Below are positions 24,202 through 50,333 of a stretch of DNA of 64,000 bases, in pieces. The notes under the pieces were generated by a model, which was given only the letters and a program-made list of their open reading frames with translations, had not been told where the DNA came from and searched no databases. The position numbers and the translations under genes are program-made. How positions within the stretch are numbered: the stretch's first letter is position 1; every line of letters begins with the position of its first letter. Source of the stretch: a virus (Duplodnaviria; Heunggongvirae; Uroviricota; Caudoviricetes). The DNA is taken from the IMG/VR virus record IMGVR_UViG_3300034093_001947; one strand, given 5' to 3'.

Positions 24202-24202
24202 T

Positions 24203-24842: not shown

Positions 24843-25312
24843 CATTAAAACATACTAAAGGTAATCTACTCGACCTAGCAGAAGCAGGTGAGTTCGATGT
24901 TGTGGTACAAGGCTGTAATTGCTTTAACACAATGGGCGGCGGCATTGCCCGAGAGATCCGTGAACGATTTCCAATGTGTGCAGAGATCGATAATCTAACT
25001 GCCAAAGGCGATCATATGAAACTAGGTAACTGGACAGAATTTGACCAAGGTACTTTTATTATCATCAATGCCTACACTCAGTACAATATGAGTCAAGGTA
25101 CTGATGTGTTTGAGTACACTGCATTTCAATTGATACTTGAGAAATTAACATTTATGTACGGTAACAAACGTATTGGATTGCCTTACATTGGATGCGGACT
25201 TGCCGGTGGCGACCAGGAAACTATTTTGGATATGATCGAACGGTTTGCCGCCCAGATTGCTAAACGAAGTGGTCAGGTTACACTCGTTGAATTTAGCCAA
25301 AGAATTAGTTGA
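24839..25312 (+). CDS. macro domain (ADP-ribose-binding/processing) protein
   Basis: …VVVQGCNCFNTMGGGIAREI… fits the macro-domain N-x-x-N … GGG[VI]A motif; 157 aa. Confidence 0.6.
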   Translation: MTLKHTKGNLLDLAEAGEFDVVVQGCNCFNTMGGGIAREIRERFPMCAEIDNLTAKGDHMKLGNWTEFDQGTFIIINAYTQYNMSQGTDVFEYTAFQLILEKLTFMYGNKRIGLPYIGCGLAGGDQETILDMIERFAAQIAKRSGQVTLVEFSQRIS

Positions 25313-25390
25313 CGCAGAAATAGGTCTGTGTTATACTATAAACAAGTCCAAGCGATAGACGCCTGGCATAACAAGTAAAGGAACTTTACA

Positions 25391-35542: not shown

Positions 35543-35623
35543 ATAAATTTGTAGGACGCCGTTAGGGTTCTACAAATGGGGAATAGTTCCCCACAATGTT
35601 CTTGCTTATTAAGGAGAAAAACA

Positions 35624-36055
35624 ATGAACGCACTTTCACGCTTTGACACAACAGCTCTACAACATCTGAATAGAGCACTTATCGGATTCAATCGTATTTC
35701 AAACGATTTCGAAAACCGACACGTAAATTCCACAACAAACTATCCGCCTTATAATGTCATTCAACGTGACGAAAATAACTTTGAAATCGAAATCGCAGTA
35801 GCAGGTTTTGACAAAGAAGATATTACAGTTGCAGTTGACCAGGATCAATTAATCATCAAAGGTAACCGTACTAAAGATGAAGATTCGGAAAAGTACATTC
35901 ACCGCGGACTGGCTGCTCGTGATTTTGAACGGGCGTTTACGCTTGTAGATCACGTAGAAGTGGGCGATGCTGAGTTGACAAACGGCATTCTTCGTGTTAA
36001 ACTTACACGAGTAGTACCTGAAGCACTCAAGCCTCGTTTGATTGCCATCAAGTAA
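35624..36055 (+). CDS. small heat-shock protein (Hsp20/alpha-crystallin family, IbpA-like)
   Basis: …PPYNVIQRDENNFEIEIAVAGFDKEDITV…LIIKG… alpha-crystallin domain; start set at MNALSRFD. Confidence 0.65.
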   Translation: MNALSRFDTTALQHLNRALIGFNRISNDFENRHVNSTTNYPPYNVIQRDENNFEIEIAVAGFDKEDITVAVDQDQLIIKGNRTKDEDSEKYIHRGLAARDFERAFTLVDHVEVGDAELTNGILRVKLTRVVPEALKPRLIAIK

Positions 36056-36090
36056 GTTCAGGGGCTCCGGCCCCTTTTTAGAAAGTCTAT

Positions 36091-36399
36091 ATGGCAAATA
36101 CCAAAACTAAAGATATTGTTGATATTGAAGAAGATTTTGACATTGTAACACCCGGCATGTACAAAGTGATTGTACTAAATGATGATCACACCCCAATGGA
36201 TTTTGTCATTGCATTATTGATGCATGTGTTTAAGCACAACGAATCTAGTGCAAAAGAAATAACAATGCGAGTACATGAACAGGGTGCAGGTGTTGCCGGT
36301 GTTTATACTTACGAAGTTGCAGAACAAAAAGGTGTAGAAAGCACAATGCTTGCTAGACAAAATGGTTGGCCACTAGCTGTTAGAATCGAAGAAGAATGA
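36091..36399 (+). CDS. clpS: ATP-dependent Clp protease adaptor ClpS
   Basis: …MYKVIVLNDDHTPMDFVIALLMHVFKH…EITMRVHEQGAGVAGVYTYEVAE… is the classic ClpS core. Confidence 0.8.
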   Translation: MANTKTKDIVDIEEDFDIVTPGMYKVIVLNDDHTPMDFVIALLMHVFKHNESSAKEITMRVHEQGAGVAGVYTYEVAEQKGVESTMLARQNGWPLAVRIEEE

Positions 36400-37622
36400 A
36401 ACAATACGCCGTTACTGGAATAGGAATCATTAATGGGCTAGGTGCAAGTGTTCAAGAAAACTGGAAAAATCTGTTAGCAGGAGAAACTGCAATTAAACAG
36501 ATCAAATGGCCTGAAGATAATCCGACAAAATTTCCAAGAACACATAAATCTTTAATTGTCTCTTCTGGAGCACCGTGTCCGTTACCTGCGTTTGAAGAAG
36601 CAGAATTTGGAGGGCATCACCAGTATTGGGATCCGTGTGTTAAAATATCAATGCACACTGCTAGAGATGCTATCAGAGACAGCAATCTTACTAGCAAAAA
36701 TGTTTCAGTAGTGTTTAGTACCACTGGTGGAAGTTTACATAGTAGAGCATACATGATGCGACAACTAGAAGATGGCCGCGAAAGAGTTTCACCAAGGCAG
36801 GTAATACAAGCAACTGCGGATTACATTAGCGGATTGATTGCTAGGATATACGAATGCAACGGTGGTTCAACTTCGATGCACTCTGCATGTTCAACTGGAC
36901 TAACTGGTATTGATTATGCTATTAAGCAACTAGAATTTAATGACGATCTCGATGCTGTCATTGTGGGAGGTGCCGACGTACCCATTGAAGGCTTCCAAGT
37001 ATACTACTTTCAAAATCTCGGTGCATTAAGTTTACAACCAGCAGAAATTGCCAGTAGACCTTTTGACAAAGATAGATCAGGATTTGTAGCAGGAGAAGCT
37101 GCTGGCACACTAATTATCGAACCGTTAGATAAAGCCAAAGCACGGGGTGCAAAGATTTACGGAATAATCAAGTCTGTGGGAATTGCCACAGCTGGTAATA
37201 ATGATACTGCCCCAGATAAAAACGGTGACGCTGCAAAGTTAGCAGTAACCAGAGCAATAAAACAAGCAGGCATACAGTTAGCCGATGTCGGATATATTAA
37301 TGCACACGCTACCGGAACTAAAGTCGGAGATGACATTGAATTTTATGCCATGCGTGAGTTGTTGCCAGGCACAACAATGACGGCAAATAAAGGACAAATT
37401 GGACACACGTTGGCTGCAAGCGGAATTGTTGAAACTATCTACACTGTGTTAGCACTACGAGATCAAATATCACCCCCTACTGTAAATTTAACTAACCCAA
37501 TTGATGTAGGAATCAATATTCCTACCAAGGCCACGGTGATTGCAACTAAGTATGCAATAAAGAACAATTTTGCATTCGGCGGCAGGGCTGCTTGTGCAGT
37601 ATTAGAACGTTACGAGGATTAA
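36396..37622 (+). CDS. beta-ketoacyl-[ACP] synthase (KAS I/II-like condensing enzyme)
   Basis: Active-site Cys block …SMHSACSTGL…, His blocks …INAHATGT… and …GQIGHTLAASG…, and a thiolase fold of about 400 aa. Confidence 0.75.
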   Translation: MKQYAVTGIGIINGLGASVQENWKNLLAGETAIKQIKWPEDNPTKFPRTHKSLIVSSGAPCPLPAFEEAEFGGHHQYWDPCVKISMHTARDAIRDSNLTSKNVSVVFSTTGGSLHSRAYMMRQLEDGRERVSPRQVIQATADYISGLIARIYECNGGSTSMHSACSTGLTGIDYAIKQLEFNDDLDAVIVGGADVPIEGFQVYYFQNLGALSLQPAEIASRPFDKDRSGFVAGEAAGTLIIEPLDKAKARGAKIYGIIKSVGIATAGNNDTAPDKNGDAAKLAVTRAIKQAGIQLADVGYINAHATGTKVGDDIEFYAMRELLPGTTMTANKGQIGHTLAASGIVETIYTVLALRDQISPPTVNLTNPIDVGINIPTKATVIATKYAIKNNFAFGGRAACAVLERYED

Positions 37623-38174
37623 ATGAGTCTTAAAGAATTAACAGCAGAAAATCACGATCGTGCAGAACACACACCTTTTATGAAGGCAGTGTTTGCAAAG
37701 ACATTACCCAGAGAAATATGGACAGACTGGACTTTACAAAAGTCCTTATTTTACGGTGCAATCGAAGGTGCAGCCGGTGCTAACAGATTACTAGGCGACT
37801 TGCCCGATCTGCGTAGAGAATTTTATCTAAACATGGACTACAATGAGATGAACGGGCAAAATCCTCGTCACTCATATCGCCCATTGGTTATTGATTATTA
37901 CAACTATATATTAAGCATCAGTCAAGATCCTAATAAGGTTATGGCACATTTATATGTGTGGCATATGGGAGATATGTTCGGCGGACAAATGATTAAGAAG
38001 ATTGTTCCGGGTCCGCATCGCAATTTAGAATTTGAAGATGCTAACACATTAAAAACTAACATTCGTGCTAAGTTAGATGACAGCATGGGCGACGAAGCCA
38101 ATGTAGCTTTTGAATGGGCTATCAAAATTATGGAGTCATATAACAATGAGCTTGGTCTGGAACAGTCTAATTGA
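37623..38174 (+). CDS. heme oxygenase
   Basis: N-terminal LKELTAENHDRAEHTPFMKAVF matches the HO proximal-helix motif L…T…H…E…FMK. Confidence 0.6.
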   Translation: MSLKELTAENHDRAEHTPFMKAVFAKTLPREIWTDWTLQKSLFYGAIEGAAGANRLLGDLPDLRREFYLNMDYNEMNGQNPRHSYRPLVIDYYNYILSISQDPNKVMAHLYVWHMGDMFGGQMIKKIVPGPHRNLEFEDANTLKTNIRAKLDDSMGDEANVAFEWAIKIMESYNNELGLEQSN

Positions 38175-38826
38175 TATACAAACTGAGTTTGAAAGACAAT
38201 TCAATCTCAGTGGTACAGAAGTACAAGAGCCGGGCTTAGAAAGATTCAGTTGGTACAACAAAGTCTGGACCAGTAGCTTATATCGCAGAGCACACATCGA
38301 TGTAGTAGATGCTAGAGAAACCAAGGGCCTATGGATGATGCATTGCTGTGTGTTTCCGCATACTCATAATCCTGCACCTATCTTTGGATTTGATGTAGTA
38401 GCTGGCAAAAACAAAGTAACAGGTGCGTTTCACGACTTTAGTCCTGCTGGTGATCCAGAGCATCCGATGCTAGATTATTTTGCAGACGAAGCACAAAAAT
38501 TAGAGTGGAACAAAGTTAGACGTTTGCCCGACTGGGCAGAGCGTATCTTTACTCCTAGCATGATCAGTGCGGGAAACGTTAACGATCCAACTGAGCTTCA
38601 ACAACTGTATTTTACTGCTATTAATAACTTAAAGCATTTCATTAACACAGTAGGCGAGACAAACGGAACTGCATTAGACACTGGTCCTGCACAGGATTAC
38701 TATTGTGAAAATCAAAGACAGAATCCCCATACTCCTAAAGTAATGACTGCATTGGGTTTGAATCCAGAAGACGTTCGTGTGTTTATACAGGACTGCCTGT
38801 TTCCTAAGATAGGAACACATCAATGA
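38146..38826 (+). CDS. ferredoxin-dependent bilin reductase (PebA/PebS/PcyA family), copy 1
   Basis: …WYNKVWTSSLYRRAHIDVVDARE…LWMMHCCVFPHTHNPAPIFGFDVVAGKNKVTGAFHDFSP… FDBR core; start at MSLVWNS with a GGAG RBS. Confidence 0.65.
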   Translation: MSLVWNSLIDIQTEFERQFNLSGTEVQEPGLERFSWYNKVWTSSLYRRAHIDVVDARETKGLWMMHCCVFPHTHNPAPIFGFDVVAGKNKVTGAFHDFSPAGDPEHPMLDYFADEAQKLEWNKVRRLPDWAERIFTPSMISAGNVNDPTELQQLYFTAINNLKHFINTVGETNGTALDTGPAQDYYCENQRQNPHTPKVMTALGLNPEDVRVFIQDCLFPKIGTHQ

Positions 38827-39491
38827 GCACAGTATGGACACAGATGCAGCAGTGTGCTGAAACTATGCAGGCCATGATGGAACATGCAGGGTACAGAGCA
38901 GAAGATCCTAGTTTAGATCAATACGACTGGGAAAATCATGTATACCATAGTAATCTGTTTCGTAGAGGACACGTGGAAGTAGTAGACAAGACTACAACAC
39001 ACGGAATATACATCCTACATGCAACAGTATTCCCACACCCAGACGATCCTAGTCCTATCTGGGGTTTTGATGCTGTCTGCGGCAAGAACAAGATCACAGG
39101 TGCGTTTCATGATTTTAGTCTAGTAAGCAAAAGCCATTGGTTGCACGACTGGTTTGCAGATACTGTAAAAGACGTAACTTGGAACAAGAAACGAGAATTA
39201 CCCGGGTGGGCTCGTAATATTTTTAGCCCTGCTATGGTAGCAGCGGGTAATATTAGCGAGCAGCACGAGTTAGATAATATTATAGATCTAGGAATTAAAA
39301 CCCTAGATTACTATCTACACAATGTAGGAGATCGCATTAACGGGGTCGATGTTACTGACCAACAAAATTACTACTGTCAAAATCAGAAACAAAATCCCCA
39401 TGTGTATCGCAGCATGATTGCTATGGGAGTGCCGGAAGCAACTATCCGACAGTTTGTTGAGCAAGTGCTGTTCCCTGAAATTGGTAAATAA
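38823..39491 (+). CDS. ferredoxin-dependent bilin reductase, copy 2 (paralog)
   Basis: …WENHVYHSNLFRRGHVEVVDK…LHATVFPHPDDPSPIWGFDAVCGKNKITGAFHDFS… runs parallel to copy 1. Confidence 0.65.
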   Translation: MSTVWTQMQQCAETMQAMMEHAGYRAEDPSLDQYDWENHVYHSNLFRRGHVEVVDKTTTHGIYILHATVFPHPDDPSPIWGFDAVCGKNKITGAFHDFSLVSKSHWLHDWFADTVKDVTWNKKRELPGWARNIFSPAMVAAGNISEQHELDNIIDLGIKTLDYYLHNVGDRINGVDVTDQQNYYCQNQKQNPHVYRSMIAMGVPEATIRQFVEQVLFPEIGK

Positions 39492-39497
39492 CTTATT

Positions 39498-41186
39498 ATG
39501 CGAGCACGTGAATTTTTAAAAGAATCTTTTCTAGTTGAAAAACTAATGAGCCAGGGCGGGTCAGATAATGACTGGCTAAAAGACAAATACTATATTCTAT
39601 TTTTTGAAGGTATTTTAAACAATCAAGTTTATTCTTTCGGAGTAGGTGGTAGTACTAGTAAAAAGAATCCTAGTAGTCCAACAAACTTCATGGGTATAGT
39701 ACAAAATCCGCAAGATGTGGTTGCACAGATGAAACGTGCAATTAAGAATAAAGATTTTAGTGATGTGTATTTCGATGTAGAGGAAGTCGACGACGAAACT
39801 TTGGAACCTAATGGCGAGATTTGGGAAAATGTTAGGCCGGGTAATATTTTCAAAGATGAAAAGGTCACCGGGGTATTAAAACCTAACATGGGTAATGTTT
39901 CCGAAGCAATTCTAGGATGTGCCGTTGCTGCTAAATTTAGCAATCAAGGCGGCATGATAACCGAAGCTCAGGTTGTTAATTTAGCAAAACAGTTAGCAAA
40001 AAATAGAGGGCAACTAAATTTACAAGCAGGCAAAGATGTTTTAGAATTTAAAGTTACTATTCCTTTTATGGACAAAAAGGCGTTTTACGCCTGGCTCAAC
40101 GAGGATAGCAGAGGCAAAACTCTCAAAGACTATAAAGTTCCCGATGATAGTATAAAAATGTTCGATCAAAGACTTAAGAGTGCAATAGAGTACGCCAACA
40201 AATCAAAAAAAATATTAAGTGCAGTTAGTGAAGCAGTAGATGATCCGGGTAAAAATAAGATCGACGTTATCAGTGACGGTGCTGAAAAAGAAAATCAAAA
40301 TACAACCAAAGTTGACTTAAAAATCTTAATAGATGGTAAAGAAACTGCTAAACGATTATTAAGTGTAAAGGCCGGAAACGTTGAACAGTTTGGTCAGGCC
40401 GGTGGACATAATTTTAACAACTTAAATGAGTTTTTTACTTCAATTGTAGGATTAGGTTTACCAGAAACTTTTAGAAAGAAATTTCATGAAATTCCTAAAC
40501 AAGCACCTGCAGAATGGAATGTTAAGAAAAAAGAAAACTTTGAAAATAGTTTTGCAGTATCATACGAATTTATAGCTAAACAGTTATCTATACAGGCAAA
40601 AAGAGATCCCGACGGATTTGTTGAAAATGTTTATAGAGGGCTACTTAATCATTTAACTAGAAACGAAGCAGGAGTCGAAATGGTTATTTTAGATCCTGAT
40701 AGTAAAAAAGCATTCTCTGAATTAGAATTTGGTAAAGATTTTGAAGATGCATTACGTCAGCTTCAATTAGTAGTGGATTTTAGACAGGCAACAGGATATG
40801 CTCTTTCTGTTTACGGATTACCAAAAACTCAATTGGCTAGTAAATTTATTCCTAAAAAACAAGGTGAGCCCACAAGATTAATTGATCTAAGATCTCAATA
40901 TGATAGCAGAACTAATGCAATTAGAAATAGAATCAATATGGGTCCTTTGTTAAAGAAAATAGCAGATATCGAAAATTATCTCGAAAAGAATCCAGAAGAT
41001 ACTATGCAGCAGCCTGCACCTGTTTCAATGCCTGTTGCAAAAGCCCCAGTTGCAAAACCGCCAGTAGCTACGCCAAAACAGCCTGCACTAGCGGTAAGCA
41101 AGCCCAAAATAGGAGCACCGGTACAGCCCAAAGGCACACTGGGCTCAACTCCTGCACCCCAAACTGGTATCAAACCAGGAATTTAA
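39498..41186 (+). CDS. hypothetical protein with a Pro/Ala-rich C-terminal repeat tail
   Basis: 562 aa; the C-terminus is …PAPVSMPVAKAPVAKPPVATPKQPALAVSKPKIGAPVQPKG…. The N-terminus MRAREFLKE resembles MRAHEFINE of the 47350 ORF. Confidence 0.45.
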   Translation: MRAREFLKESFLVEKLMSQGGSDNDWLKDKYYILFFEGILNNQVYSFGVGGSTSKKNPSSPTNFMGIVQNPQDVVAQMKRAIKNKDFSDVYFDVEEVDDETLEPNGEIWENVRPGNIFKDEKVTGVLKPNMGNVSEAILGCAVAAKFSNQGGMITEAQVVNLAKQLAKNRGQLNLQAGKDVLEFKVTIPFMDKKAFYAWLNEDSRGKTLKDYKVPDDSIKMFDQRLKSAIEYANKSKKILSAVSEAVDDPGKNKIDVISDGAEKENQNTTKVDLKILIDGKETAKRLLSVKAGNVEQFGQAGGHNFNNLNEFFTSIVGLGLPETFRKKFHEIPKQAPAEWNVKKKENFENSFAVSYEFIAKQLSIQAKRDPDGFVENVYRGLLNHLTRNEAGVEMVILDPDSKKAFSELEFGKDFEDALRQLQLVVDFRQATGYALSVYGLPKTQLASKFIPKKQGEPTRLIDLRSQYDSRTNAIRNRINMGPLLKKIADIENYLEKNPEDTMQQPAPVSMPVAKAPVAKPPVATPKQPALAVSKPKIGAPVQPKGTLGSTPAPQTGIKPGI

Positions 41187-41262: not shown

Positions 41263-41745
41263 ATGCGATTTTTAATTCTCGGCCTGGCCTTGTCTGCAAT
41301 GACGGTACAGGCTGCACCAATAAATGACTTTACTTTTAAAAGTCCGGCCTTCAACGGAGCAGGTTACAGTAGTCACGTCTTAACTATCGAAAATCAAGAA
41401 GCGACTCGTAGAAAAGCTCTACAAGATAGACTTCAAGCAGCATTAGACAAAGAGGCTGCTGACAAAAAGAACACTAACTTGGCTAAGTTTTTAAACAACT
41501 TAGAGTCTAGAATCTATGCACAAGTTAGCCAAAACGTAGCAACTGCTATGTTTTCTAATAGCGGATGCACCAGTACTACTCCTACAGCAGATTGTAAAGG
41601 TGAGGTTGATTTCCAAGGCAGCAAAATCAGCTGGCAAAAAGTTATATTAGTAGACGGCAACTTTATTCGTCTAACTGTAGTAGGTCCAGATATCAATACC
41701 ACTATTGATATTCCGTTAAGTCAATTTGTAGTTCCGGGGATATAA
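41263..41745 (+). CDS. csgF: curli assembly protein CsgF-like
   Basis: Signal peptide. The mature N-terminus …FTFKSPAFNGAGY… resembles CsgF …FQFRNPNFGGNPN…, and the later …FLNNLESRIYAQVSQNV… resembles …DNFTQAIQSQILGGL…. Confidence 0.55.
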   Translation: MRFLILGLALSAMTVQAAPINDFTFKSPAFNGAGYSSHVLTIENQEATRRKALQDRLQAALDKEAADKKNTNLAKFLNNLESRIYAQVSQNVATAMFSNSGCTSTTPTADCKGEVDFQGSKISWQKVILVDGNFIRLTVVGPDINTTIDIPLSQFVVPGI

Positions 41746-41746
41746 T

Positions 41747-42661
41747 ATGAAAAAAATATTATTAGTACTAGTCTTTACAAGTTTTCTAACAGGGTGTGCA
41801 ATACATCAAAATAATCCTTTAGTAGAGGCGGACAAGCCCGAAGTTACCGCAGTGATGATGCAGAAAGAATTTGATACTATACAGGAGCCTGCACACGGAA
41901 AACCTGTTAGTGTTGCGGTGTATAGTTTTAAAGATATGACTGGTCAGAGAAAGCCGCAGGCCAATATTGCCAGTTTAAGTTCCGCAGTTACACAAGGTGC
42001 AGAAAGCTTCTTGATCAAAGCACTGCAAGATGTAGGTCGAGGACAATGGTTTGATGTTGTTGAGCGGGTAGGTATCGATAACTTGACCAAAGAAAGATTA
42101 ATTATTCGTCAGATGCGTGAAGCATATGAAGGAGCGGCTGCAAAGCCATTAATGCCAATGCAGTTTGCTGGCATGATTATTGAAGGTGGTATAGTAGGTT
42201 ATGACAGTTCAACAAAGAGTGGCGGCATTGGTGCAAGAGTCTTTGGTATTGGAAAACAGACTCAGTGGAGTCAGGATATTGTAACCATAAGCCTAAGAGC
42301 AGTGAGTGTTAATACTGGAAAAGTATTAGCATCTGTAACTGTGCAAAAAACAATTCTTAGTTCGGCTGATGCAATAACTGCTCTTAAATTCTTTGACCTA
42401 GGCACTAGGGCATTTGAAGGCGAAGCAGGATTAACAATAAACGAGCCAGGAACATATGCTGTAAAATCAGCAATCGAAGCCGGAGTGGTTGAACTTATCA
42501 AAGAAGGAGCTCGTAAGGGGCTTTGGAATTATAAGGGAGCAAAAAATGAGTTGGTTCAAAAGAACACCGAAAGCGAAAGAGCCCCAGAAGGCCCTTCCGC
42601 AACGCCGCAGTCCAGTGTCAGAAAAGATGCTGAAGGAAGCAAAGAAGTCAGGGCCAAGTAA
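41747..42661 (+). CDS. csgG: curli secretion channel lipoprotein CsgG-like
   Basis: Lipobox LTGC. …VSVAVYSFKDMTGQ… matches CsgG …VSVYNIQDETGQ…, …GMIIEGGIVGYDSSTKSGGIGARVFGIG… matches …GSIIGYESNVKSGGVGARYFGIG…, and …KTILSS… and …GLW… continue the match. Confidence 0.8.
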   Translation: MKKILLVLVFTSFLTGCAIHQNNPLVEADKPEVTAVMMQKEFDTIQEPAHGKPVSVAVYSFKDMTGQRKPQANIASLSSAVTQGAESFLIKALQDVGRGQWFDVVERVGIDNLTKERLIIRQMREAYEGAAAKPLMPMQFAGMIIEGGIVGYDSSTKSGGIGARVFGIGKQTQWSQDIVTISLRAVSVNTGKVLASVTVQKTILSSADAITALKFFDLGTRAFEGEAGLTINEPGTYAVKSAIEAGVVELIKEGARKGLWNYKGAKNELVQKNTESERAPEGPSATPQSSVRKDAEGSKEVRAK

Positions 42662-42717
42662 GTCGGGGAGCAATACATAACACCCCAAGGAGCAGTTTCA
42701 AAAGAACTGATAAAAAC

Positions 42718-43497
42718 ATGAAGAAGCTAAATCAAGTAATGACAGCGATTGTGATGTTAGTCGCTTTACAAGTTTTCGCAGCAGACAATAGTATCTATAT
42801 TGATCAAACAGGTGACAACTCTGTTATCACTATGCTACAAGATGGTGCAACCAACCGCGTCCGCGGCATACAAGGCACGGGCACAGGCAACACTACTCCG
42901 TCAAAAATCAAAGGTGATAATTTAACTTTGATTGTTGAACAAATTGGTAGTGCTAACATTTTAAACTTGGGTGTTGTAACTGCCACAGCTAGTGGCGGCG
43001 TTGATACTAGTGTTATATATCGAGTAACAGGTAATAGCGGTATCGGTACTATCAATATGAACAATAGCGAGCAGGGTACTGCAAATAGTAATACTGTTTC
43101 TATTGATCAAACAGGCGATTATACTATTGCTAACCTTAATTTACTAGGATCTAATAACATATTCAATGCTGTTACAGACGGTAACTTGAATCAAATTGTT
43201 GCTACAATTGATGCGGATCAAGTTACTGTAAACATCAATAAGAGTAGCGGAACTGCAAATAACACTACACTAAATTTAACTGGTGCAAAAGGCACAGTAG
43301 ATTTAACCATATTAGGTGCTAGTAACGCAACGAATATTACTCAAAGTGGTGGTGGTGCCGACGGACACATTGCAACATTGAATATCAATGGATCTAATAA
43401 CAATACCACAGTTGTACAAAGTGGTACTATCAATACCAATGTTAATCTTGCTGTGGCAGGAAGCGGAAACACAGTCAGCATTACTACTGGTAATTAA
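42718..43497 (+). CDS. curlin-repeat secreted subunit (CsgA/CsgB-like)
   Basis: Signal peptide plus repeated S-x5-Q-x-G-x2-N-x-A/I units (IYIDQTGDNSVITMLQDG, VSIDQTGDYTIANLNLLG, ITQSGGGADGHIATLNINGSNN, VVQSGTINTNVNLAVAGSGN). Confidence 0.6.
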   Translation: MKKLNQVMTAIVMLVALQVFAADNSIYIDQTGDNSVITMLQDGATNRVRGIQGTGTGNTTPSKIKGDNLTLIVEQIGSANILNLGVVTATASGGVDTSVIYRVTGNSGIGTINMNNSEQGTANSNTVSIDQTGDYTIANLNLLGSNNIFNAVTDGNLNQIVATIDADQVTVNINKSSGTANNTTLNLTGAKGTVDLTILGASNATNITQSGGGADGHIATLNINGSNNNTTVVQSGTINTNVNLAVAGSGNTVSITTGN

Positions 43498-43505
43498 GGT
43501 GTGAG

Positions 43506-44621
43506 ATGTCTGTATGTCGCTTAATCTTATTAGGCTTATTGATCAGTACCTCGCTGAACAGTCAAGCCAGCATCGGAACAGTGACGGAGTTGCTGAACGC
43601 ACCTCCCAGCATACAGAGAAAGAATTCAACTCTAACAGGCAACAAGGGCACGGGAGTAGAAATGAACGACTCTGTGAAAACAGCAGCGGGCAAAGTGGGC
43701 ATAACGTTCGAGGATCAGACTCGAGTACAGGTTAATGAAAACTCTAGATTGGTCATTGACGACTTTGTATACGATTCAAAATCAAAATCCGGTAAGCTGG
43801 GTGTTAAAGTTGCATTGGGCACTGTTAGATACGCCAGTGGACAAATTGCCAAGAACTCACCGCAGAACGTTGCAGTTAACACACCCACTGCTACTATCTC
43901 AGTTCGTGGAACTGATTTTACCGCCACCGTAGATGAAATGGGTGGCAGTACTGTAATTTTGTTACCAAGTTGCCCAAATGATCGTCCTACTCGTACAAAT
44001 AGAGATATTGAAGCCAATTGTGTTGTAGGGACTATCATAGTTGAAACAGATGTTGGTCAGGTTATTCTTAATCAAGCATTCCAAGCAACCAAAGTAGCTA
44101 GCAGGGCTGCACTGCCTACTAAACCTGTTATCCTTACTCTCAGTGAAGATGCTATTAGTAATTTGTTAATCATAAGTCCTCCACAAGAACTAAAGCAGGG
44201 CGGTAAAAGAGAAACAAGTCTAAATCATAATGCATTAGATGCTGACTTCTTGAGAGAGCAAGGACTTGAAAACAAATTAGATCAACAAAATGCACAATTT
44301 TTTGAAGATAGACTTACTCGTAACTTTTTAGATAATAATTTTTTAGCTAACATATTTGATGTAATAGGTAGCGGCTTAGATGAAGATTATCTAAAAGACG
44401 AAACGGACAGCATATTGCCAGACTGGAAAAGAGCAAGCGGTATTATTGTGACTAAGGACGAGGGTCAAATTGGGTTATGTAGAGATAACGGTAGCGATAT
44501 ACAATGCGTAACAACACCGTTGACACAGAACAGTTTGATAACGCAGATACAAGGTAGTATTGAATTTAGTAACAGAGTAAATTCGGGCGGTAATACTATT
44601 ATTACCATAGTACAAAGATGA
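43506..44621 (+). CDS. secreted FecR-domain protein
   Basis: Signal peptide; …GKVGITFEDQTRVQVNENSRLVID…TATISVRGTDFTATVDE… is FecR/DUF4974-like. Confidence 0.45.
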   Translation: MSVCRLILLGLLISTSLNSQASIGTVTELLNAPPSIQRKNSTLTGNKGTGVEMNDSVKTAAGKVGITFEDQTRVQVNENSRLVIDDFVYDSKSKSGKLGVKVALGTVRYASGQIAKNSPQNVAVNTPTATISVRGTDFTATVDEMGGSTVILLPSCPNDRPTRTNRDIEANCVVGTIIVETDVGQVILNQAFQATKVASRAALPTKPVILTLSEDAISNLLIISPPQELKQGGKRETSLNHNALDADFLREQGLENKLDQQNAQFFEDRLTRNFLDNNFLANIFDVIGSGLDEDYLKDETDSILPDWKRASGIIVTKDEGQIGLCRDNGSDIQCVTTPLTQNSLITQIQGSIEFSNRVNSGGNTIITIVQR

Positions 44622-46363
44622 AGAAAATATTATTAGCATTAATGTTATTATGTTCAAATGCCTTTGGTGCTATCACTGACGGTAAGTTTGGTATCAATCA
44701 AATATTCGATGTTCAATATTACTGGAGTGGTAACACACTAAACGCCAGCAACTTTATTGCACCTTATAATAAAAACTTTCAAACAGTAACCGTAACCTCA
44801 GGACAGTACTTCCAATTCTTTGACAGCACAACCAATCCAGGTAAGCACGGATTGAAGTTAATGAACAGCAATGGAACACAACACAGCATTGTTCACGACC
44901 ACGGTGACATTACAGCACTAGGCAATGGTGCCATTTTTTATATCGGTTCGGGATTCTTTGGCAATGTTATTACTACTGCTCAGGGTTATAACTACGGTGC
45001 TAGTGCCAGTTTCACTAACATGGATACTAGTGTTACTAGCACAGACTTAAACAATTATACCTATGCGAGTTCAACTCCGTTATCAGCAGGACAAACAGCA
45101 GCCCCTCCTCCGCCTACAACTGATTGGAAAACAATCAAGACTAACAGCACGCCTGTTGTGATTAGTAACATTTACCCAACTAGTAATAACAGTCCAGCAG
45201 GCGAAGGTGCAGGCAATGCGTTCGACGGTAATACTGGTACAAAATACTTAAATTTTGATAAAAAGAATGCAGGAGTTACAGTTAAATTAAGTCAAGGTCG
45301 TGTAGTACAAAAATTTACCTTAACTACTGCTAACGACTTTGAAGGACGCGATCCTACTAGTTACAAACTCTACGGAAGCAATGACGGCGTAAATTGGGTA
45401 TTAATTAAACAGGATACCGTGTCTTTAAGCGATCAAAGATTTTGGACCAGTCCGGAGATACAAACAGGCAACACTACTGCCTATGTCTATTACTTTATTT
45501 TATTCCCTACTACTAAATCAGGAGACGGATGCGGCCTTAACTGCGACAGTATGCAGATCGCTGAAATCACTTTTTACTACGACTTAAATGACGGAGTCAC
45601 TAGCACTGCAACAGGTTCGGGCAGTACTCCAAACAATCCGGGTACTGCTGGCAGCGTCTGTGCTGACTGCGGTCCAACTGTAGTAGGCGGAACAATCACA
45701 CAGACAAATGCACCATCAAATCAAACTATACAAAGTGGCGGTACTTATGTTAATAATTCTAGTAGAGCTGCACAACAGACTAGAATCAATACTTGGGTTA
45801 ACAGTACTTCACCTTATAGTAATTCGGTGCATGTTGATCAGATAGGTGGGGACAACAATAACATAACTATCAACGTAACAGGAACAAAGAACCGAGTTGA
45901 GTTGACTTTAGACGGAGCTGGAACTAATACTATCGGCATCACACAAGTTGGTTCAAACTACGTAACAGCAGATGTTAATGGTTATCAAAATAACTTGACA
46001 TCCAGCCAGACAAATACCATTGGTACTAATTATACTGAAACTGTGATAAACGGCAATAACAACACTGCAAATCACACACAGGGCAACAGTCAGTTGTTAT
46101 TCAGCACAGTTAGCGGTAATAACAATACGCTAGTCACTAGCCAAACAGGCACGGGACAACATTATCTCGATGTTAAGATGACGGGCAACGGGCACAATGT
46201 AAATGTTAATCAATTTGGTTCCATGGCTAATAATGCAAGAATTGATGTGACCAATGCCGGCGGGGCCGCAACTGTAGATCTAGAACAAAGCGGCGGCAAG
46301 AGTTTTACTCTAATACAGAGTTGTGCAATTTTATCAGGATGTAACACCACAGTTAGACAGTAA
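44618..46363 (+). CDS. large secreted protein with an F5/8 type C (discoidin) domain and C-terminal curlin repeats
   Basis: Signal peptide; …GNAFDGNTGTKYLNFDKKNAGVTVKL…YKLYGSNDGVNWVLI… discoidin motifs; the C-terminal third has curlin-like repeats (VHVDQIGGDNNNITINVTG, ITQVGSNYVTADVNGYQNN, TSQTGTGQHYLDVKMTGNGHN, VNQFGSMANNARIDVTNAG, LEQSGGKSFTLIQS). Confidence 0.55.
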   Translation: MKKILLALMLLCSNAFGAITDGKFGINQIFDVQYYWSGNTLNASNFIAPYNKNFQTVTVTSGQYFQFFDSTTNPGKHGLKLMNSNGTQHSIVHDHGDITALGNGAIFYIGSGFFGNVITTAQGYNYGASASFTNMDTSVTSTDLNNYTYASSTPLSAGQTAAPPPPTTDWKTIKTNSTPVVISNIYPTSNNSPAGEGAGNAFDGNTGTKYLNFDKKNAGVTVKLSQGRVVQKFTLTTANDFEGRDPTSYKLYGSNDGVNWVLIKQDTVSLSDQRFWTSPEIQTGNTTAYVYYFILFPTTKSGDGCGLNCDSMQIAEITFYYDLNDGVTSTATGSGSTPNNPGTAGSVCADCGPTVVGGTITQTNAPSNQTIQSGGTYVNNSSRAAQQTRINTWVNSTSPYSNSVHVDQIGGDNNNITINVTGTKNRVELTLDGAGTNTIGITQVGSNYVTADVNGYQNNLTSSQTNTIGTNYTETVINGNNNTANHTQGNSQLLFSTVSGNNNTLVTSQTGTGQHYLDVKMTGNGHNVNVNQFGSMANNARIDVTNAGGAATVDLEQSGGKSFTLIQSCAILSGCNTTVRQ

Positions 46364-46472: not shown

Positions 46473-47342
46473 ATGACTGTAGTAGGAATAAACGCTCTTA
46501 ACCACGATGCTAGTATTGCGGTTGTGGACAATGGTCAAATATTGCACCATGAACGATCCCTGTGTGGAGTTGACCTTTGTCCTGAACTAGTTGATCGTGC
46601 ATTATCATACGGAGCAGTAGATGCAATTGCTTGGTACGAAAGGCCTTGGCTGAAAAAGTCACGGCAGCTATACGCAGGGCAATACAGAGATGCAGTCAGC
46701 ATTGATCAGCTACCTCATTACTATCTAAAAAAATTTAACATACCTTCTGTTCCAATTTATTATGTGCCGCATCATTTAAGTCATGCAGCCAATGCAGTAT
46801 ATGAAAGTAGATTAGCTGAGACTGCGGTCGTAGTAGCCGATGCAATTGGAGAGTGGGATACTGTGAGTATCTGGCATTATAAAGATCAAAAATTTAAAAA
46901 AGTATTTTCAAAAGGTTATCCTTATAGCCTTGGTTTGTTCTACTCAGCATTTACAGAGTTACTGGGATTTAAACCTGTCCAAGAAGAGAGCAAACTTACT
47001 ATGCTAGCAACATCTGGTGATTGGGAACCAAACTACTTAACAGTCTGCGGCTACCTAACAAAGAATCTGCATAAAGGAATCTGGGATTGGGAAGTAGCAG
47101 AAAAAGATCGTGCAGACGTAGCTGCCAGCGTACAACGTGTGTTCATGGAACAGATAAAAAATTGCTTTAAACTTGCCTCTTTTCACAGTAATTCTTGTGT
47201 TTTTACAGGCGGATGTGCCTATAATGTGCCTGCAAAAAGGCTTCTTTCATCTACATTTAAACACAGCTATGTTCCAAAAAATCCAGGCGATGCAGGGTCA
47301 AGCATGGGTGCTGCACTATACATATCGGATAAACTAAAATAA
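46473..47342 (+). CDS. ASKHA-fold carbamoyltransferase/Kae1-like protein (NodU/CmcH N-domain-like)
   Basis: N-terminal MTVVGINALNHDASIAVVDNGQILHHERS resembles the carbamoyltransferase N-terminus (ILGI…HD.S.ALV.DG). Confidence 0.4.
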   Translation: MTVVGINALNHDASIAVVDNGQILHHERSLCGVDLCPELVDRALSYGAVDAIAWYERPWLKKSRQLYAGQYRDAVSIDQLPHYYLKKFNIPSVPIYYVPHHLSHAANAVYESRLAETAVVVADAIGEWDTVSIWHYKDQKFKKVFSKGYPYSLGLFYSAFTELLGFKPVQEESKLTMLATSGDWEPNYLTVCGYLTKNLHKGIWDWEVAEKDRADVAASVQRVFMEQIKNCFKLASFHSNSCVFTGGCAYNVPAKRLLSSTFKHSYVPKNPGDAGSSMGAALYISDKLK

Positions 47343-47349
47343 ATACATC

Positions 47350-47634
47350 ATGAGAGCACACGAATTTATTAACGAAGACTGGAATAAAGTCAACAGAAAA
47401 GATAAGACTGATGGTCTAAGCCAAAAGGCAGTAAATGCTTACCGAAGAGAGAATCCGGGTAGTAAGTTAAAGACAGCAGTAACTACTAAGCCTAGCAAAT
47501 TAAAAGCAGGTAGCAAGGATGCTAAACGCCGTAAGAGTTTCTGTGCCCGTATGAGTGGCAATAAAGGTCCTATGAAAAAGCCTAACGGAAAACCTACACC
47601 AAAAGCATTAGCACTACGCCGATGGAATTGCTAA
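47350..47634 (+). CDS. small basic hypothetical protein
   Basis: ORF; Lys/Arg-rich. Confidence 0.35.
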   Translation: MRAHEFINEDWNKVNRKDKTDGLSQKAVNAYRRENPGSKLKTAVTTKPSKLKAGSKDAKRRKSFCARMSGNKGPMKKPNGKPTPKALALRRWNC

Positions 47635-47637
47635 TTT

Positions 47638-48285
47638 ATGAAACCTACCGTTGCCCTGTTTTTGTATGATCCTAAATGTAGCGTACAGTCAGGCAATGGA
47701 GTTATACGATCATTACAGTCACATTATAACTTTAAAATATTCAGCATCAATCCCTTAGAAGATAACTTCTTTGATGATGTAGACATGATAGTTATTCCTG
47801 GCGGCTTTGGTGATGCTAGTACATTTGACCGTGCATTTAAATATACTAAAGATAGAGTTAAAACATTTGTAAGCGGTGGTGGTAAGTATTTAGGTATATG
47901 CATGGGTGCGTATTGGGCCGGCCAACACTATTTTGATATACTGGACAGCGTTGATGCTGTTCAATACTCAACGCAACCCAATACAGATACACGCAGACCA
48001 CACGCTAAAAATATCAGTATAACTTGGAAAAACCAGCCAATGAATATGTTTTGGTATGATGGTTGTGCTTTAGTAGGTAACTCTGCTAAGTTTAACACCA
48101 TTGCCACATATGCAAACGGAGACGCTATGGCTATTATACAAAACAATATCGGTGTAATAGGTTGCCATCCAGAAAGTGAAAACTATTGGTACGATAGCTA
48201 CTCATGGATGGCGGGCAAGTATCACAATGGACAACATCACCGTCTGCTTTTAGACTTTGCTAACCAACTAAATACTGGATGTTGA
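47638..48285 (+). CDS. class-I glutamine amidotransferase-like fold protein
   Basis: …MIVIPGGFGDAS…GGKYLGICMGAY… (possible nucleophile elbow G-x-C-x-G). Confidence 0.4.
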   Translation: MKPTVALFLYDPKCSVQSGNGVIRSLQSHYNFKIFSINPLEDNFFDDVDMIVIPGGFGDASTFDRAFKYTKDRVKTFVSGGGKYLGICMGAYWAGQHYFDILDSVDAVQYSTQPNTDTRRPHAKNISITWKNQPMNMFWYDGCALVGNSAKFNTIATYANGDAMAIIQNNIGVIGCHPESENYWYDSYSWMAGKYHNGQHHRLLLDFANQLNTGC

Positions 48286-50333
48286 AAAAAATCCTAACAA
48301 GTCCATGGACAGCATTGCTGACATTGGCACTTATTTTAAGTATAAGAATTGCTGATCCTGTCTTTGTAGAAAGTATAAGACTACGCTATTTTGATACGCT
48401 GATTACATCTAAAGAAACTACTGTTAACAACATTGTTACAGTAAACATTGATGAAGGGAGCTTAGACAAATATGGACAATGGCCGTTACCTCGTGTTGAG
48501 TATTCCCGACTTATACGAGATTTATATCAGAGGGGAGCGGGCCTTGTGGTACTTAACGTACTCATGCCAGAAACAGATCGTACAGGTGGTGACAGTCAAC
48601 TGGGTAAAGCTCTAAAAGAATACCCAGTTGTATTAGGCAGCATTCCTGCACAGAAAACAAAGAACGAACCACGCAATCCCGGTTCGGCAGTATTAGGTCC
48701 TGAGTACTTGGATCAAATTATACAGTATCCGGGTTTGATTGCCAACGTACCTGTGTTAGAGAACGCAGCAGCAGGTGTTGGTATCGTAAACACACTGCCA
48801 GAAGTAGATGGTGTTAATCGCAGATTGCCGTTAATTGTCACAGTTGACGGTAAGTTATATCCTAGTCTAGCTATGGAAACACTCCGCGTAGCGGCAGGCG
48901 ATTCAACATTCCAAGTCAAGCTATTTGAAGGTGGAGTTGAGAAGATGCGTATACCTAAGTTTGGTCCTGTAGCAACAGATAACTTAGGTCGCATATGGAT
49001 TGATTGGAGTCAGGCAAGTCACAGCGTTAGTGCAGTAAACCTGCCAAAAGATCTAGCAGGTGCTATTGTTATCGTAGGCCCAACAGCCGCAGGTATTGCT
49101 AATCCATTACCCACTAGTAAGGGTGCAGTATTTCCACACGAAGTACAGGCCGCAGTAATAGGCACAATGATGAACAATGTAACTATCCAGCGTCCGGATT
49201 ACGCAGATGGTGTGGAAATTATTGTACTGTTAGCAGCAGGCGTACTATTATTATTTTTAACAAGGTGGGTATATGTTGGACTTGGAACAGTGGTTGCTCT
49301 TTCTATGGGTGGTGTTGCTGTCAGCATGTATGCTTATAGCCAGTATCTTTATCTGTTTGATGCTACTGCTTTTGTCAGTGGCATATTGCTTGTGGCATTA
49401 CATGCATACGGAGTTAAATTCGTAAGCGAGTTTTTACAGAAGCAGGCAATCAAGAAACAGTTTGCAGGTTACGCTAGTCCTACAGTGGTTAGATTACTGC
49501 AAGAAAATCCAGACCTTATTAAGAAGGGTGTTAAGAAAGAAGTCAGCATACTGTTTTCAGACTTACGTGGCTTTACACCCCTAGGTGAAAGCTTTGGTGA
49601 TGATGTTGCGGGGCTTACACGTATAATGAACGGCTACATGGACGCTATTACGCAACCTGTATTAGATGCAGACGGAATGATTATCAAGTACATCGGTGAT
49701 GCCAGTATGCACATACACAATGCACCCATTGAAGATCTTAATCACCCGTCAACAGCAGTTCGCACAGGATTAAAGATGCTTAGAGCTGTAGATACTTTTA
49801 ACCGAGACGTGATTGTTCCGCAAGGCAGACCACCAGTTGGTATGGGTGCAGGCATTAATACAGGATTGGGCTACATCGGTGAGATGGGCAGTACAGCTCG
49901 ACACAGTTACGATGTACTAGGCGATGCCGTTAGCACAGCCGCACGTATCGAAAGCAAGTGTAAAGAATACGGTTGCCTGTTATTAGTAGGTGGAGCAACC
50001 GTTCAACGATGTGCTGACGAGTTCTTCTTCCTTAAGATTGACGACCTAGCAGTTAAAGGTAAGAGTGTAGGAGTTGCTATCTATACAGTACTTGACCCTG
50101 ACGTAACTGTTGCCGCAGAATATTTGTTAGCACAAGAAACTCATAATGAAATGCACTCATGTTATAGACAGCAGAAATGGGACGATGCCATTACACTGTG
50201 TGAAGAACTGAAAGATGAGTTCGACGGGCAAATGAAAAAATACTACAGCATGTGGATAGAACGCTGTGAGTTTCAAAAGACTCAAATACTTCCAGCCGAC
50301 TGGAATGGCGTATTCATAGCCACAAGCAAGTAA
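48279..50333 (+). CDS. CHASE2 sensor domain-containing class III adenylate/guanylate cyclase
   Basis: N-terminal TM and a CHASE2-like region (…VNIDEGSLDKYGQWPLPR…LIRDLYQRGAGLVVLNV…), a TM cluster at about residues 300-370, then a cyclase homology domain (…ILFSDLRGFTPLGE…KYIGDASM…GINTG…). Confidence 0.7.
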   Translation: MLKKILTSPWTALLTLALILSIRIADPVFVESIRLRYFDTLITSKETTVNNIVTVNIDEGSLDKYGQWPLPRVEYSRLIRDLYQRGAGLVVLNVLMPETDRTGGDSQLGKALKEYPVVLGSIPAQKTKNEPRNPGSAVLGPEYLDQIIQYPGLIANVPVLENAAAGVGIVNTLPEVDGVNRRLPLIVTVDGKLYPSLAMETLRVAAGDSTFQVKLFEGGVEKMRIPKFGPVATDNLGRIWIDWSQASHSVSAVNLPKDLAGAIVIVGPTAAGIANPLPTSKGAVFPHEVQAAVIGTMMNNVTIQRPDYADGVEIIVLLAAGVLLLFLTRWVYVGLGTVVALSMGGVAVSMYAYSQYLYLFDATAFVSGILLVALHAYGVKFVSEFLQKQAIKKQFAGYASPTVVRLLQENPDLIKKGVKKEVSILFSDLRGFTPLGESFGDDVAGLTRIMNGYMDAITQPVLDADGMIIKYIGDASMHIHNAPIEDLNHPSTAVRTGLKMLRAVDTFNRDVIVPQGRPPVGMGAGINTGLGYIGEMGSTARHSYDVLGDAVSTAARIESKCKEYGCLLLVGGATVQRCADEFFFLKIDDLAVKGKSVGVAIYTVLDPDVTVAAEYLLAQETHNEMHSCYRQQKWDDAITLCEELKDEFDGQMKKYYSMWIERCEFQKTQILPADWNGVFIATSK

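Follow-up and report, generated by a model that had tools for sequence, protein, structure and literature searches.

The window, a stretch of 64,000 nt of Caudoviricetes DNA (IMG/VR record IMGVR_UViG_3300034093_001947), displays five open reading frames in the same direction at positions 41263–46363. These had been predicted, from the letters alone, to be five consecutive secreted-protein genes, and each is found where that prediction placed it; all five encoded proteins have signal-peptide-like N-termini. The predicted extent of the cassette was however too small, as a sixth member, a CHASE2-nucleotide cyclase gene, lies further downstream and was missed. The features are listed in Table 1. 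The surrounding genes are those of a phage, as originally proposed: rIIA/rIIB, ribonucleotide reductase, NAMPT and 14 tRNAs are present in the window. The original designation of the phage as T4-like is uncertain: the nearest relatives of the rIIA in the window are from jumbo phages, and the exact proteins are found on a 381-kb contig. The cassette is part of an island of auxiliary genes that lies after those for heme oxygenase and bilin reductases, and has a GC content of 0.39–0.42 (window, ~0.40).

Table 1. Open reading frames of the cassette and of the segment between the second curlin gene and the cyclase gene
Feature	Positions	Strand	Basis
CsgF-like secreted protein, 160 aa; predicted cap/adaptor of the CsgG channel	41263..41745	+	Pfam CsgF, ortholog profile
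CsgG outer-membrane lipoprotein channel, 304 aa	41747..42661	+	Pfam CsgG, lipobox
Putative short subunit with curlin repeats, 259 aa, CsgA/B-like beta-solenoid, signal peptide	42718..43497	+	
Periplasmic protein with a FecR domain, 371 aa; putative partner of the CHASE2 cyclase	43506..44621	+	Pfam FecR
Long modular curlin protein, 581 aa, discoidin/CBM32 and C-terminal curlin-type solenoid	44618..46363	+	Pfam F5_F8_type_C, family profile, AlphaFold
Three genes inserted before the cyclase: Carbam_trans_N-like, DUF6321, GATase/BPL_N-like	46473..48285	+	Pfam
CHASE2 sensor fused to class III nucleotide cyclase, 684 aa; sixth cassette member	48279..50333	+	Pfam, conserved synteny

Profile searches establish that the window encodes a predicted CsgG lipoprotein channel together with a predicted CsgF cap. 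The CsgG protein contains the peptides quoted in the original prediction and belongs to the CsgG family rather than to an unrelated lipoprotein family (Pfam CsgG, E-value = 4.8e-49; NCBIfam CsgG, E-value = 1.4e-53; E. coli CsgG structures, E-value = 6e-49 over residues 5–272). It bears an LPAM lipobox (LTGC) and has a 39% aa sequence identity to E. coli CsgG and 44%–46% to the CsgG proteins of the phages Melnitz and HTVC008M. The constriction loop is unlike that of E. coli; in the alignment, FKPYPASNFSTAV stands opposite RKPQANIASLSSAV. The CsgF protein scores 29.1 bits against Pfam CsgF (cut-off 25.8). A single-sequence phmmer search of the PDB with this protein found no CsgF, but a profile of 29 phage and bacterial orthologs gave E. 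coli CsgF (6l7a_J, 6lqh_a) as best matches, with full-length alignment and an E-value of 0.003. The motif F-x-F-x-x-P-x-F-x-G at the N-terminus is kept among orthologs, and the identity to CsgF of HTVC008M and Melnitz is 34%–39%. Pfam searches of all open reading frames from 37.6 to 50.3 kb showed no CsgE, CsgC or CsgD family; the lack of CsgE had been noted before.

The window also encodes two proteins that, by family profiles and structure prediction, are probably curlin-repeat beta-solenoids with predicted Sec export, one short and one long, the latter with a discoidin/CBM32 module. The original assignment of curlin repeats can be verified only in part on the single sequences. The 259-aa protein scores 10.9 bits against Pfam Curlin_rpt, which is under the 20.7 threshold, the 581-aa protein gives no match to Curlin_rpt, and the repeat motif as first written (S-x5-Q-x-G-x2-N-x-A) has 0 matches in either. 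The assignment is supported by family profiles and predicted structure. There are matches to NCBIfam CsgA (E-value = 2e-5) and CsgB (E-value = 1e-4). The 259-aa family profile finds only two sequences in the PDB, and both are curli subunits (8c50, E-value = 1.1e-9; 8enq, E-value = 5.5e-3). This subunit is predicted to be secreted and to consist of Q/N/G-rich strand-turn-strand repeats, with a predicted CsgA-like fold. The family profile of the 581-aa protein matches curlin 8c50 at its C-terminal part (E-value = 1e-3) and the CBM32-like module of 7nsn (E-value = 3.4e-20). E. coli CsgA has a Gly-rich targeting segment at its N-terminus; inspection showed no such segment in the curlin proteins of the window. 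A tail fibre or tailspike beta-helix was considered as well; such a protein would be cytoplasmic, lack a signal peptide, be encoded in a structural module and fold as a three-faced beta-helix, and the proteins here do not fit this description.

The AlphaFold model of the 581-aa protein displays a signal peptide, an N-terminal beta domain (~20–135), a discoidin/CBM32 domain (~170–325), a disordered linker (349–399), and a curlin-type solenoid (400–581) with a conserved Cys pair at its end. The discoidin identity agrees with Pfam F5_F8_type_C (E-value = 2.4e-10), and a Foldseek search with the model yields CBM32 modules (E-values 1e-7 to 1e-4). The C-terminal part has 33%–34% identity to HTVC008M gp018 and Melnitz gp103, and its Cys motif is found in 47 of 55 relatives. 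In the lineage of the window the head is discoidin, with 1684 relatives at E ≤ 1e-3. A PA14 head is present instead in HTVC008M and in two of the loci (L015, L044); a Pfam search for head domains on the second curlin of the remaining cassettes tested gave no match. The second curlin is a modular protein, with an exchangeable head (discoidin here, PA14 in HTVC008M) and a conserved C-terminal Cys pair, a feature that may go beyond published descriptions.

The other two members are, by sequence comparison, a predicted periplasmic FecR-domain protein and a predicted inner-membrane CHASE2-nucleotide cyclase. The former matches Pfam FecR (E-value = 2.2e-11) and has 41%–45% identity to HTVC008M gp017 and Melnitz gp102. 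FecR proper has a cytoplasmic anti-sigma N-terminal domain and one transmembrane helix, and is linked to the ECF sigma factor FecI and the TonB-dependent receptor FecA. The protein of the window has only the periplasmic FecR domain (residues 57–151), which follows a signal-like N-terminus; topology prediction gives no internal transmembrane segment, and instead of fecI/fecA the gene has curli and cyclase genes as neighbors. A role as an anti-sigma regulator of the FecR type in ferric citrate transport was therefore rejected, and the label “iron regulator” is not justified. The cyclase has two Pfam matches (CHASE2, E-value = 1.8e-39; Guanylate_cyc, E-value = 8.2e-15); its identity is 51% to the cyclase of Melnitz and 36% to that of HTVC008M. 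Its predicted topology is a transmembrane segment at 11–31, CHASE2 outside, a transmembrane cluster at 307–383 and the cyclase domain inside. The metal-binding Asp428 and Asp474 are kept, as is Arg556, but Ser552 is in place of the canonical catalytic Asn, and thus the activity of the cyclase is uncertain. A cyclase gene follows the cassette in most of 80 viral loci. In Melnitz and HTVC008M the cyclase gene is next to that of the FecR-domain protein, and a FecR-domain gene adjoins a CHASE2 cyclase gene in 21 of 68 bacterial loci, these without CsgG; this bacterial neighborhood may not be covered by published descriptions of the cassette.

The cassette is a member of the already published pelagiphage-type type VIII secretion cassette (Zaragoza-Solas 2020; Buchholz 2022; PMC9599517, 2022), and represents a new example, not a new kind. 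The original prediction held that curli machinery had not been described as phage cargo. This does not stand, as the GenBank records of HTVC008M (a Pelagibacter phage) and Melnitz (a Methylophilales phage) annotate the identical order, CsgF-CsgG-curlin-FecR-curlin-cyclase, and the cassette of marine SAR11/OM43 phages has been discussed with respect to aggregation (“sibling capture”), superinfection exclusion, uptake and lysis timing (PMC7029224, PMC9004378, PMC9599517). The six proteins of the published type (HTVC008M gp014–019, Melnitz gp99–104, HTVC023P-type podophages) are pairwise orthologs of those in the window with 27%–51% identity; these cassettes are likewise phage-borne, with FecR and cyclase genes, and without CsgE/C/D (see also PMC9599517). 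Expression of the cassette in metatranscriptomes was also reported in that study, as were co-occurrence ratios close to 1. Out of 225 CsgG-positive viral contigs, 80 IMG/VR loci were fetched, and all 80 have the same gene order.

The window differs from the published type in several respects. In HTVC008M and Melnitz the cyclase gene directly follows the second curlin gene, whereas three unrelated genes precede the cyclase in the window; these inserts are probably not part of the secretion system. The second curlin of the window has a discoidin/CBM32 head and an extra N-terminal domain, and that of Melnitz has no head. The contig that holds the cassette is up to 381 kb long, while the pelagiphage-type genomes are 140–150 kb. 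A thaw-lake metagenome is among the sources of its closest viral relatives; the operon was reported missing from freshwater SAR11 myophages (PMC7029224).

Three bacterial systems can be compared. The curli systems of E. coli/Salmonella (CsgBAC/CsgDEFG) and of other phyla (e.g. Pontibacter korlensis CsgA, 8c50) share CsgG, CsgF and, by prediction, secreted repeat subunits with the window. The window differs in lacking CsgE, CsgC, CsgD and the Gly-rich targeting segment, in its degenerate repeats under the Pfam threshold and its constriction-loop substitutions, and in having one subunit joined to lectin-type domains as well as FecR-domain and CHASE2 cyclase genes in the operon. The Burkholderia “BiofilmReg” operon (COG4254 LysM-FecR and a CHASE2 histidine kinase), which has been tied to biofilm formation (PMC5192318), resembles the window in combining a signal-peptide FecR protein with a CHASE2 receptor, and FecR/CHASE2 pairs of this type are linked to a surface or biofilm phenotype. 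In the window, however, a class III nucleotide cyclase takes the place of the histidine kinase as output, LysM is missing, and the FecR-domain and CHASE2 genes are four genes apart rather than adjacent. Two loci in Caulobacteraceae MAGs (L096, CANGEH010000001.1; L097, CANGCO010000005.1) have a complete CsgF-CsgG-curlin-curlin-FecR-CHASE2 cyclase set. Their CsgG proteins have 46% identity to that of the window, on a par with the marine phage copies. Unlike the window, these are bacterial contigs of GC 0.54–0.57, both curlin genes come before FecR, and a lectin head is absent. Glycosyltransferase genes flank L096 and metabolic genes flank L097. A complete six-gene cassette in one bacterial lineage may also be beyond published descriptions. 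A PycTM effector gene is found after the cyclase in one of the Caulobacteraceae loci.

The most likely putative function is that the infected cell exports adhesive amyloid-like fibres. During infection the cassette proteins would be placed into the host envelope, and the curlin proteins would be exported via the CsgG-CsgF channel and polymerize at the cell surface into amyloid-like fibres, to which the long curlin protein would bring its glycan-binding head. This would turn the infected cell sticky or coat it, which might cause aggregation with neighboring host cells or particles and/or shield the cell from other phages. Envelope sensing may be shared between the FecR-domain protein and the CHASE2 cyclase, as a two-part device that signals to the fibre system through a cyclic nucleotide. 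That the channel has a cargo is indicated by the presence of curlin-type substrates with signal peptides in every cassette (80 viral loci). As a whole, a pelagiphage-type cassette with putative fibre export, a glycan-binding head and a FecR/CHASE2 sensor appears reasonably probable. Some points stand against fibre export: the sub-threshold Curlin_rpt score, the missing CsgE/C/D and Gly-rich segment, the altered CsgG constriction, Ser552 in the cyclase, and the three unrelated genes between cyclase and cassette. It should also be noted that no clumping of Melnitz-infected OM43 was seen in cytograms or by TEM (Buchholz et al., PMC9004378).

This absence of aggregation in infected Melnitz cultures, together with structure models and Melnitz synteny, fits a proposal in which CsgG-CsgF has been repurposed as a secretin- or pinholin-like gated pore for the timing of lysis, with curlin-like genes that are irrelevant or vestigial (Buchholz et al. 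2022; PMC9004378). The CsgG constriction residues unlike those of E. coli are in line with it. However, CsgA/B were taken as missing in PMC9004378, whereas signal-peptide curlin-type substrates, recognized as curlin by profile and structure, adjoin the pore in 80 of 80 viral loci; an outer-membrane pore alone would not depolarize the inner membrane, and the Melnitz synteny cited (thyX and ssrA upstream) is not found in the window. A lysis pore is thus considered improbable. A similarly low probability is given to an open outer-membrane conduit, in which CsgG without the CsgE gate would serve nutrient or cofactor uptake during infection and FecR would hint at iron/siderophore sensing (suggested in PMC7029224, PMC9599517). 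The failure to detect CsgE in the 37.6–50.3 kb region agrees with a conduit, but the conserved CsgF, two curlin proteins and lectin head are left unexplained by it, and the FecR-domain protein is not built like the anti-sigma regulator FecR proper and has relatives that pair with CHASE2 receptors, not FecA/FecI.

The original prediction also allowed that the curlin-repeat proteins are virion fibres exported through CsgG; as virion fibres or decoration proteins they are very unlikely. All products have Sec-type signal peptides, their operon also encodes a secretion channel of the outer membrane, and they would therefore leave the cytoplasm, where virions assemble. In structure and profile comparisons the curlin-repeat proteins are closest to curli subunits rather than to tail fibres, and the cassette is also on a bacterial contig without surrounding phage genes. 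Finally, curli genes are typically cellular, and MAGs assigned to a wide range of bacteria contain relatives of the cassette, as might be expected if the cassette were host DNA that misassembly or contamination had linked to phage DNA. This is effectively refuted: the exact CsgG protein is present in 71 collection blocks (18 contigs read), the gene order is identical at the five places displayed, which are independent assemblies of ENA and JGI samples, and one contig of 380,947 bp holds CsgG, FecR and the rIIA of the window. The GC content of the cassette agrees with that of the window, and the cassette is present in cultured phage genomes. A check of one “MAG” contig of low GC content showed a T4-type DNA polymerase, ligase and clamp loader, and thus this contig is itself phage.

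The curli-type cassette consists of six open reading frames (see Table). Five of these were found on the plus strand at exactly the coordinates given in the original prediction, and the gene identities assigned there were also upheld; the sixth gene, a CHASE2 cyclase, had been overlooked. It is set apart from the other cassette genes by three unrelated genes. All five products encoded at 41263–46363 have signal-peptide-like N-termini, and CsgG aligns with solved E. coli CsgG structures (E-value = 6e-49). For CsgF, a single-sequence phmmer search of the PDB gave spurious repeat matches only, and a 29-sequence profile was required.

Table. Cassette genes and neighboring features in the window.
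Feature	Position	Strand	Evidence or remark
NAD salvage and other auxiliary genes	23179–26830, 35576–37622		NadR-like cytidyltransferase/NUDIX enzyme, NAMPT; then HSP20, ClpS, ketoacyl synthase
Heme oxygenase, two ferredoxin-dependent bilin reductases	37623–39491		upstream of cassette
562-aa ORF	39498–41186		no Pfam match
CsgF	41263–41745	+	Pfam CsgF, 29.1 bits (cut-off 25.8)
CsgG	41747–42661	+	Pfam CsgG, E = 4.8e-49; lipoprotein signal ends LTGC
Short curlin, 259 aa (putative)	42718–43497	+	Pfam Curlin_rpt, 10.9 bits (below cut-off 20.7)
FecR-domain protein	43506–44621	+	Pfam FecR, E = 2.2e-11
Second curlin with F5/8 type C domain, 581 aa (putative)	44618–46363	+	Pfam, E = 2.4e-10
Carbamoyltransferase-like ORF, 289 aa	46473–47342		Carbam_trans_N profile matched in part
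DUF6321 ORF	47350–47634
CHASE2 cyclase	48279–50333		sixth cassette gene
14 tRNA genes	61367–63948		array

Taken as single sequences, the two repeat proteins are only weakly recognizable as curlins; their families give good indications of this identity. The literal curlin motif in the original prediction has no match in either protein, and the 581-aa protein as a single sequence has no match to Pfam Curlin_rpt. The 259-aa protein is matched by the NCBIfam models for CsgA (E-value = 2e-5) and CsgB (E-value = 1e-4), its homologs of 75%–77% identity are matched by PF07012, and the curlin orthologs of the cultured phages Melnitz (Methylophilales) and HTVC008M (Pelagibacter) clear the Pfam threshold. 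A profile of 58 short-curlin sequences yields two PDB matches only, both of them curli subunits: Pontibacter CsgA (8c50, E-value = 1.1e-9) and E. coli CsgA (8enq, E-value = 5.5e-3). The AlphaFold model of the 259-aa protein is a stack of beta-hairpins (pLDDT 85.7, pTM 0.80).

The original prediction regarded the cassette as an undescribed phage cargo. This does not hold, as the same cassette is annotated in Melnitz and HTVC008M and has been published in three papers. When 50,697 phage records were searched by tblastn with CsgG, Melnitz (46%) and HTVC008M (44%) were identified; their GenBank annotations run CsgF, CsgG, curlin-repeat, FecR-domain, second curlin-repeat/hypothetical, and adenylate/guanylate cyclase. 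Every cassette protein of the window has an ortholog in these phages (27%–51% identity). The curli operon was described as common across pelagimyophages, with “sibling capture” proposed (Zaragoza-Solas 2020, PMC7029224), and CsgA/B-like, FecR and cyclase genes were reported in myo- and podophages, with cassette genes at 65 of 65 GOV2.0 stations and in metatranscriptomes, and phage curli cassettes were reported to make up ~0.1% of the viral proteins assembled from ocean viromes (mSystems 2022, PMC9599517). Relatives of the window CsgG are encoded on 225 IMG/VR contigs, and the gene order is the same in all 80 loci fetched, as far as the contigs reach. The window cassette thus belongs to an already known kind of phage cargo and represents no new kind of system. 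It is distinctive by its lectin-headed fiber protein and its unusual genome context.

The cassette is phage DNA and not an artefact. Its GC content (0.39–0.42) matches that of the rest of the window, which carries rIIA, rIIB, ribonucleotide reductase, NAMPT, a NadR-like enzyme and 14 tRNA genes. The CsgG sequence of the window recurs unchanged in 71 indexed blocks of the collection (18 contigs read), and the gene order is identical at the five places listed for it, from ENA and JGI samples. One contig of 380,947 bp holds the exact CsgG, the FecR-domain protein and the window rIIA, which suggests a genome of jumbo-phage size rather than the 140–150 kb of pelagimyophages. The window genome may therefore be much larger than theirs, and the locus would extend the cassette to such a genome. 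As the window rIIA is most similar to that of jumbo phages, e.g. PA5oct (29%), the label “T4-like” in the original prediction is unverified. The closest IMG/VR relative by CsgG (75%) is from a permafrost thaw-lake metagenome, and the range of the cassette probably reaches beyond marine SAR11/OM43 phages. The cassette and window positions 1–25000 had no megablast match among the 50,697 phage records; relatives were found by protein-level search only. Scans for promoters, terminators and T4 late promoters gave results at or below chance.

Cassettes were also found on contigs of metagenome-assembled genomes (MAGs). Two Caulobacteraceae contigs (L096 and L097, GC 0.54–0.57) hold the full cassette including FecR and cyclase. 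The genes on its flanks are ordinary bacterial ones (methylmalonyl-CoA mutase, acyl-CoA dehydrogenase, TonB receptor, glycosyltransferases); the CsgG of these contigs has 46% identity to that of the window. FecR and cyclase have been stated to be absent from bacterial T8SS operons (PMC9599517), a statement that these contigs qualify. Nine low-GC full-cassette contigs are binned in MAGs labeled as actinobacterium, Pelagibacter, Flavobacteriaceae, Rhodobacteraceae, Luteolibacter, Legionellales and Pirellulales. These were not accepted as cellular: the taxonomy is incongruent, and the one locus checked (L093) is a T4-type phage contig with T4-type DNA polymerase, ligase and clamp loader. Because of these replication genes, the low-GC loci are probably phage contigs mis-binned into public MAGs.

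A modular architecture is seen in the second curlin protein, whose profile matches a CBM32-type module at positions 185–304 (E-value = 3.4e-20) and 8c50 at positions 420–598 (E-value = 1e-3). In the four-part structural model, an N-terminal beta domain precedes the discoidin domain, which is followed by a disordered linker (349–399) and a C-terminal solenoid; Foldseek matched the model to galactose-binding CBM32 modules. Across viral loci the length of the protein ranges from ~110 to 764 aa. In the lineage of the window the head is discoidin, and 1684 relatives were found there, one of which carries the JGI name “F5/8 type C domain/Curlin associated repeat”. PA14 forms the head in HTVC008M and two other loci, and Pfam found no named head domain in ten long second curlins from other viral loci. 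In 47 of 55 phage relatives, a Cys-x(2-6)-Cys pair is kept within a few residues of the C-terminus (residues 569–575 in the window protein), and on the bacterial locus L097 one curlin ends with a similar pair; the pair may cap the solenoid by a disulfide bond.

The FecR-domain protein has the periplasmic domain alone, and a FecR-type anti-sigma factor was ruled out. In 185,579 species genomes, 68 bacterial-type loci with FecR-domain relatives were identified; in 21 of the 68 a CHASE2 cyclase lies within 1.5 kb, and none of these 21 has CsgG. A FecR-domain/CHASE2-kinase operon in Burkholderia is linked to biofilm (PMC5192318). By inference, the CHASE2 cyclase and the FecR-domain protein of the cassette form a sensor pair. 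The two metal-binding Asp residues of the window cyclase are retained, as is the Arg, but Ser (residue 552) stands at the position of the transition-state Asn; because of this replacement its activity and product are uncertain. Ser is found at this position in 32 of 54 phage-type cyclases, and Asn is kept in 22 of 23 bacterial FecR-linked cyclases. The PADLOC PycC match to the window cyclase (E-value = 6e-14) is no better than a generic Pfam cyclase match and thus is no sign of a Pycsar relationship; among three open reading frames downstream of it, none was found to be PycTM-like.

On L096, a gene for the Pycsar effector PycTM (13545–14138; Pfam E-value = 8.8e-25, PADLOC E-value = 9.6e-18) follows the CHASE2 cyclase of the cassette; the related L097 is without it. 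The FecR-domain protein of the window ends in a curlin-strand-like sequence, GGNTIITIVQR, and orthologs have similar endings. Its interpretation as a curlin-like strand was not supported, as an hhalign alignment of FecR with curlin paired the signal peptides only.

In the E. coli curli pathway, subunits are exported by Sec, pass through a nonameric CsgG channel with a CsgF cap and are nucleated and polymerized outside the cell. If the phage components act in the same way, the cassette would most likely export adhesive amyloid-like fibers from the infected cell, a capability absent from the known hosts. The fibers may benefit the phage by aggregating future hosts, by attaching to particles or by excluding other phages. 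A CsgG-type pore has also been proposed for lysis timing (Buchholz 2022, PMC9004378). Fiber export is favored because the channel is always accompanied by curlin cargo with signal peptides, one of these with diversifying sugar-binding heads. Against fiber export count the lack of clumping with Melnitz (PMC9004378), the absence of CsgE/C/D and of the CsgA N-terminal targeting segment, an altered CsgG constriction loop, and the cyclase Ser in place of the catalytic Asn.

The sugar-binding head extends what was known of these fiber proteins. Combined with the pairing of FecR and CHASE2 and with the full cassette in bacteria, it leads to hypotheses of lineage-specific glycan-targeting fibers and a cyclic-nucleotide-coupled envelope sensor. 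A joint reading is possible, though on balance doubtful: the second curlin would be an adhesin at the fiber tip or base with an exchangeable lectin head (discoidin, PA14 or others), followed by a flexible linker, the curlin solenoid and a disulfide-capped C-terminus, so that each phage lineage would aim its secreted fibers at one specific glycan, be it on host cells, on particles or on the receptors of competing phages. The FecR-domain protein and the CHASE2 cyclase would act as an envelope feedback sensor of the secretion system, inherited with the whole cassette from an alphaproteobacterial, Caulobacteraceae-like ancestor and not assembled in phages; assembly within phages is implied in PMC9599517. 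The modular second curlin, the sensor pair and the Caulobacteraceae cassette may go beyond PMC7029224, PMC9004378 and PMC9599517, whose main texts make no mention of discoidin, PA14, lectin or CHASE2.

In at least 21 of 80 IMG/VR loci, a heme oxygenase homolog precedes CsgG at a distance of up to 10 kb, thus its linkage to the cassette is recurrent. In the window, the HSP20, ClpS and ketoacyl synthase genes are just upstream of heme oxygenase, and one open reading frame (562 aa) lies between the bilin reductases and CsgF. The position of this open reading frame, directly upstream of CsgF, is kept in six other viral loci (23%–54% identity), and it shares the start MRA[RH]EF[LI] with the DUF6321 open reading frame. 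A “Nol-like carbamoyltransferase” of full length (~480 aa) is encoded in HTVC008M, a few kb upstream of the cassette; the carbamoyltransferase-like gene of the window may be a truncated copy. The array of 14 tRNA genes in the window, with two copies each for Glu, Asp and Lys, is typical for large phages.
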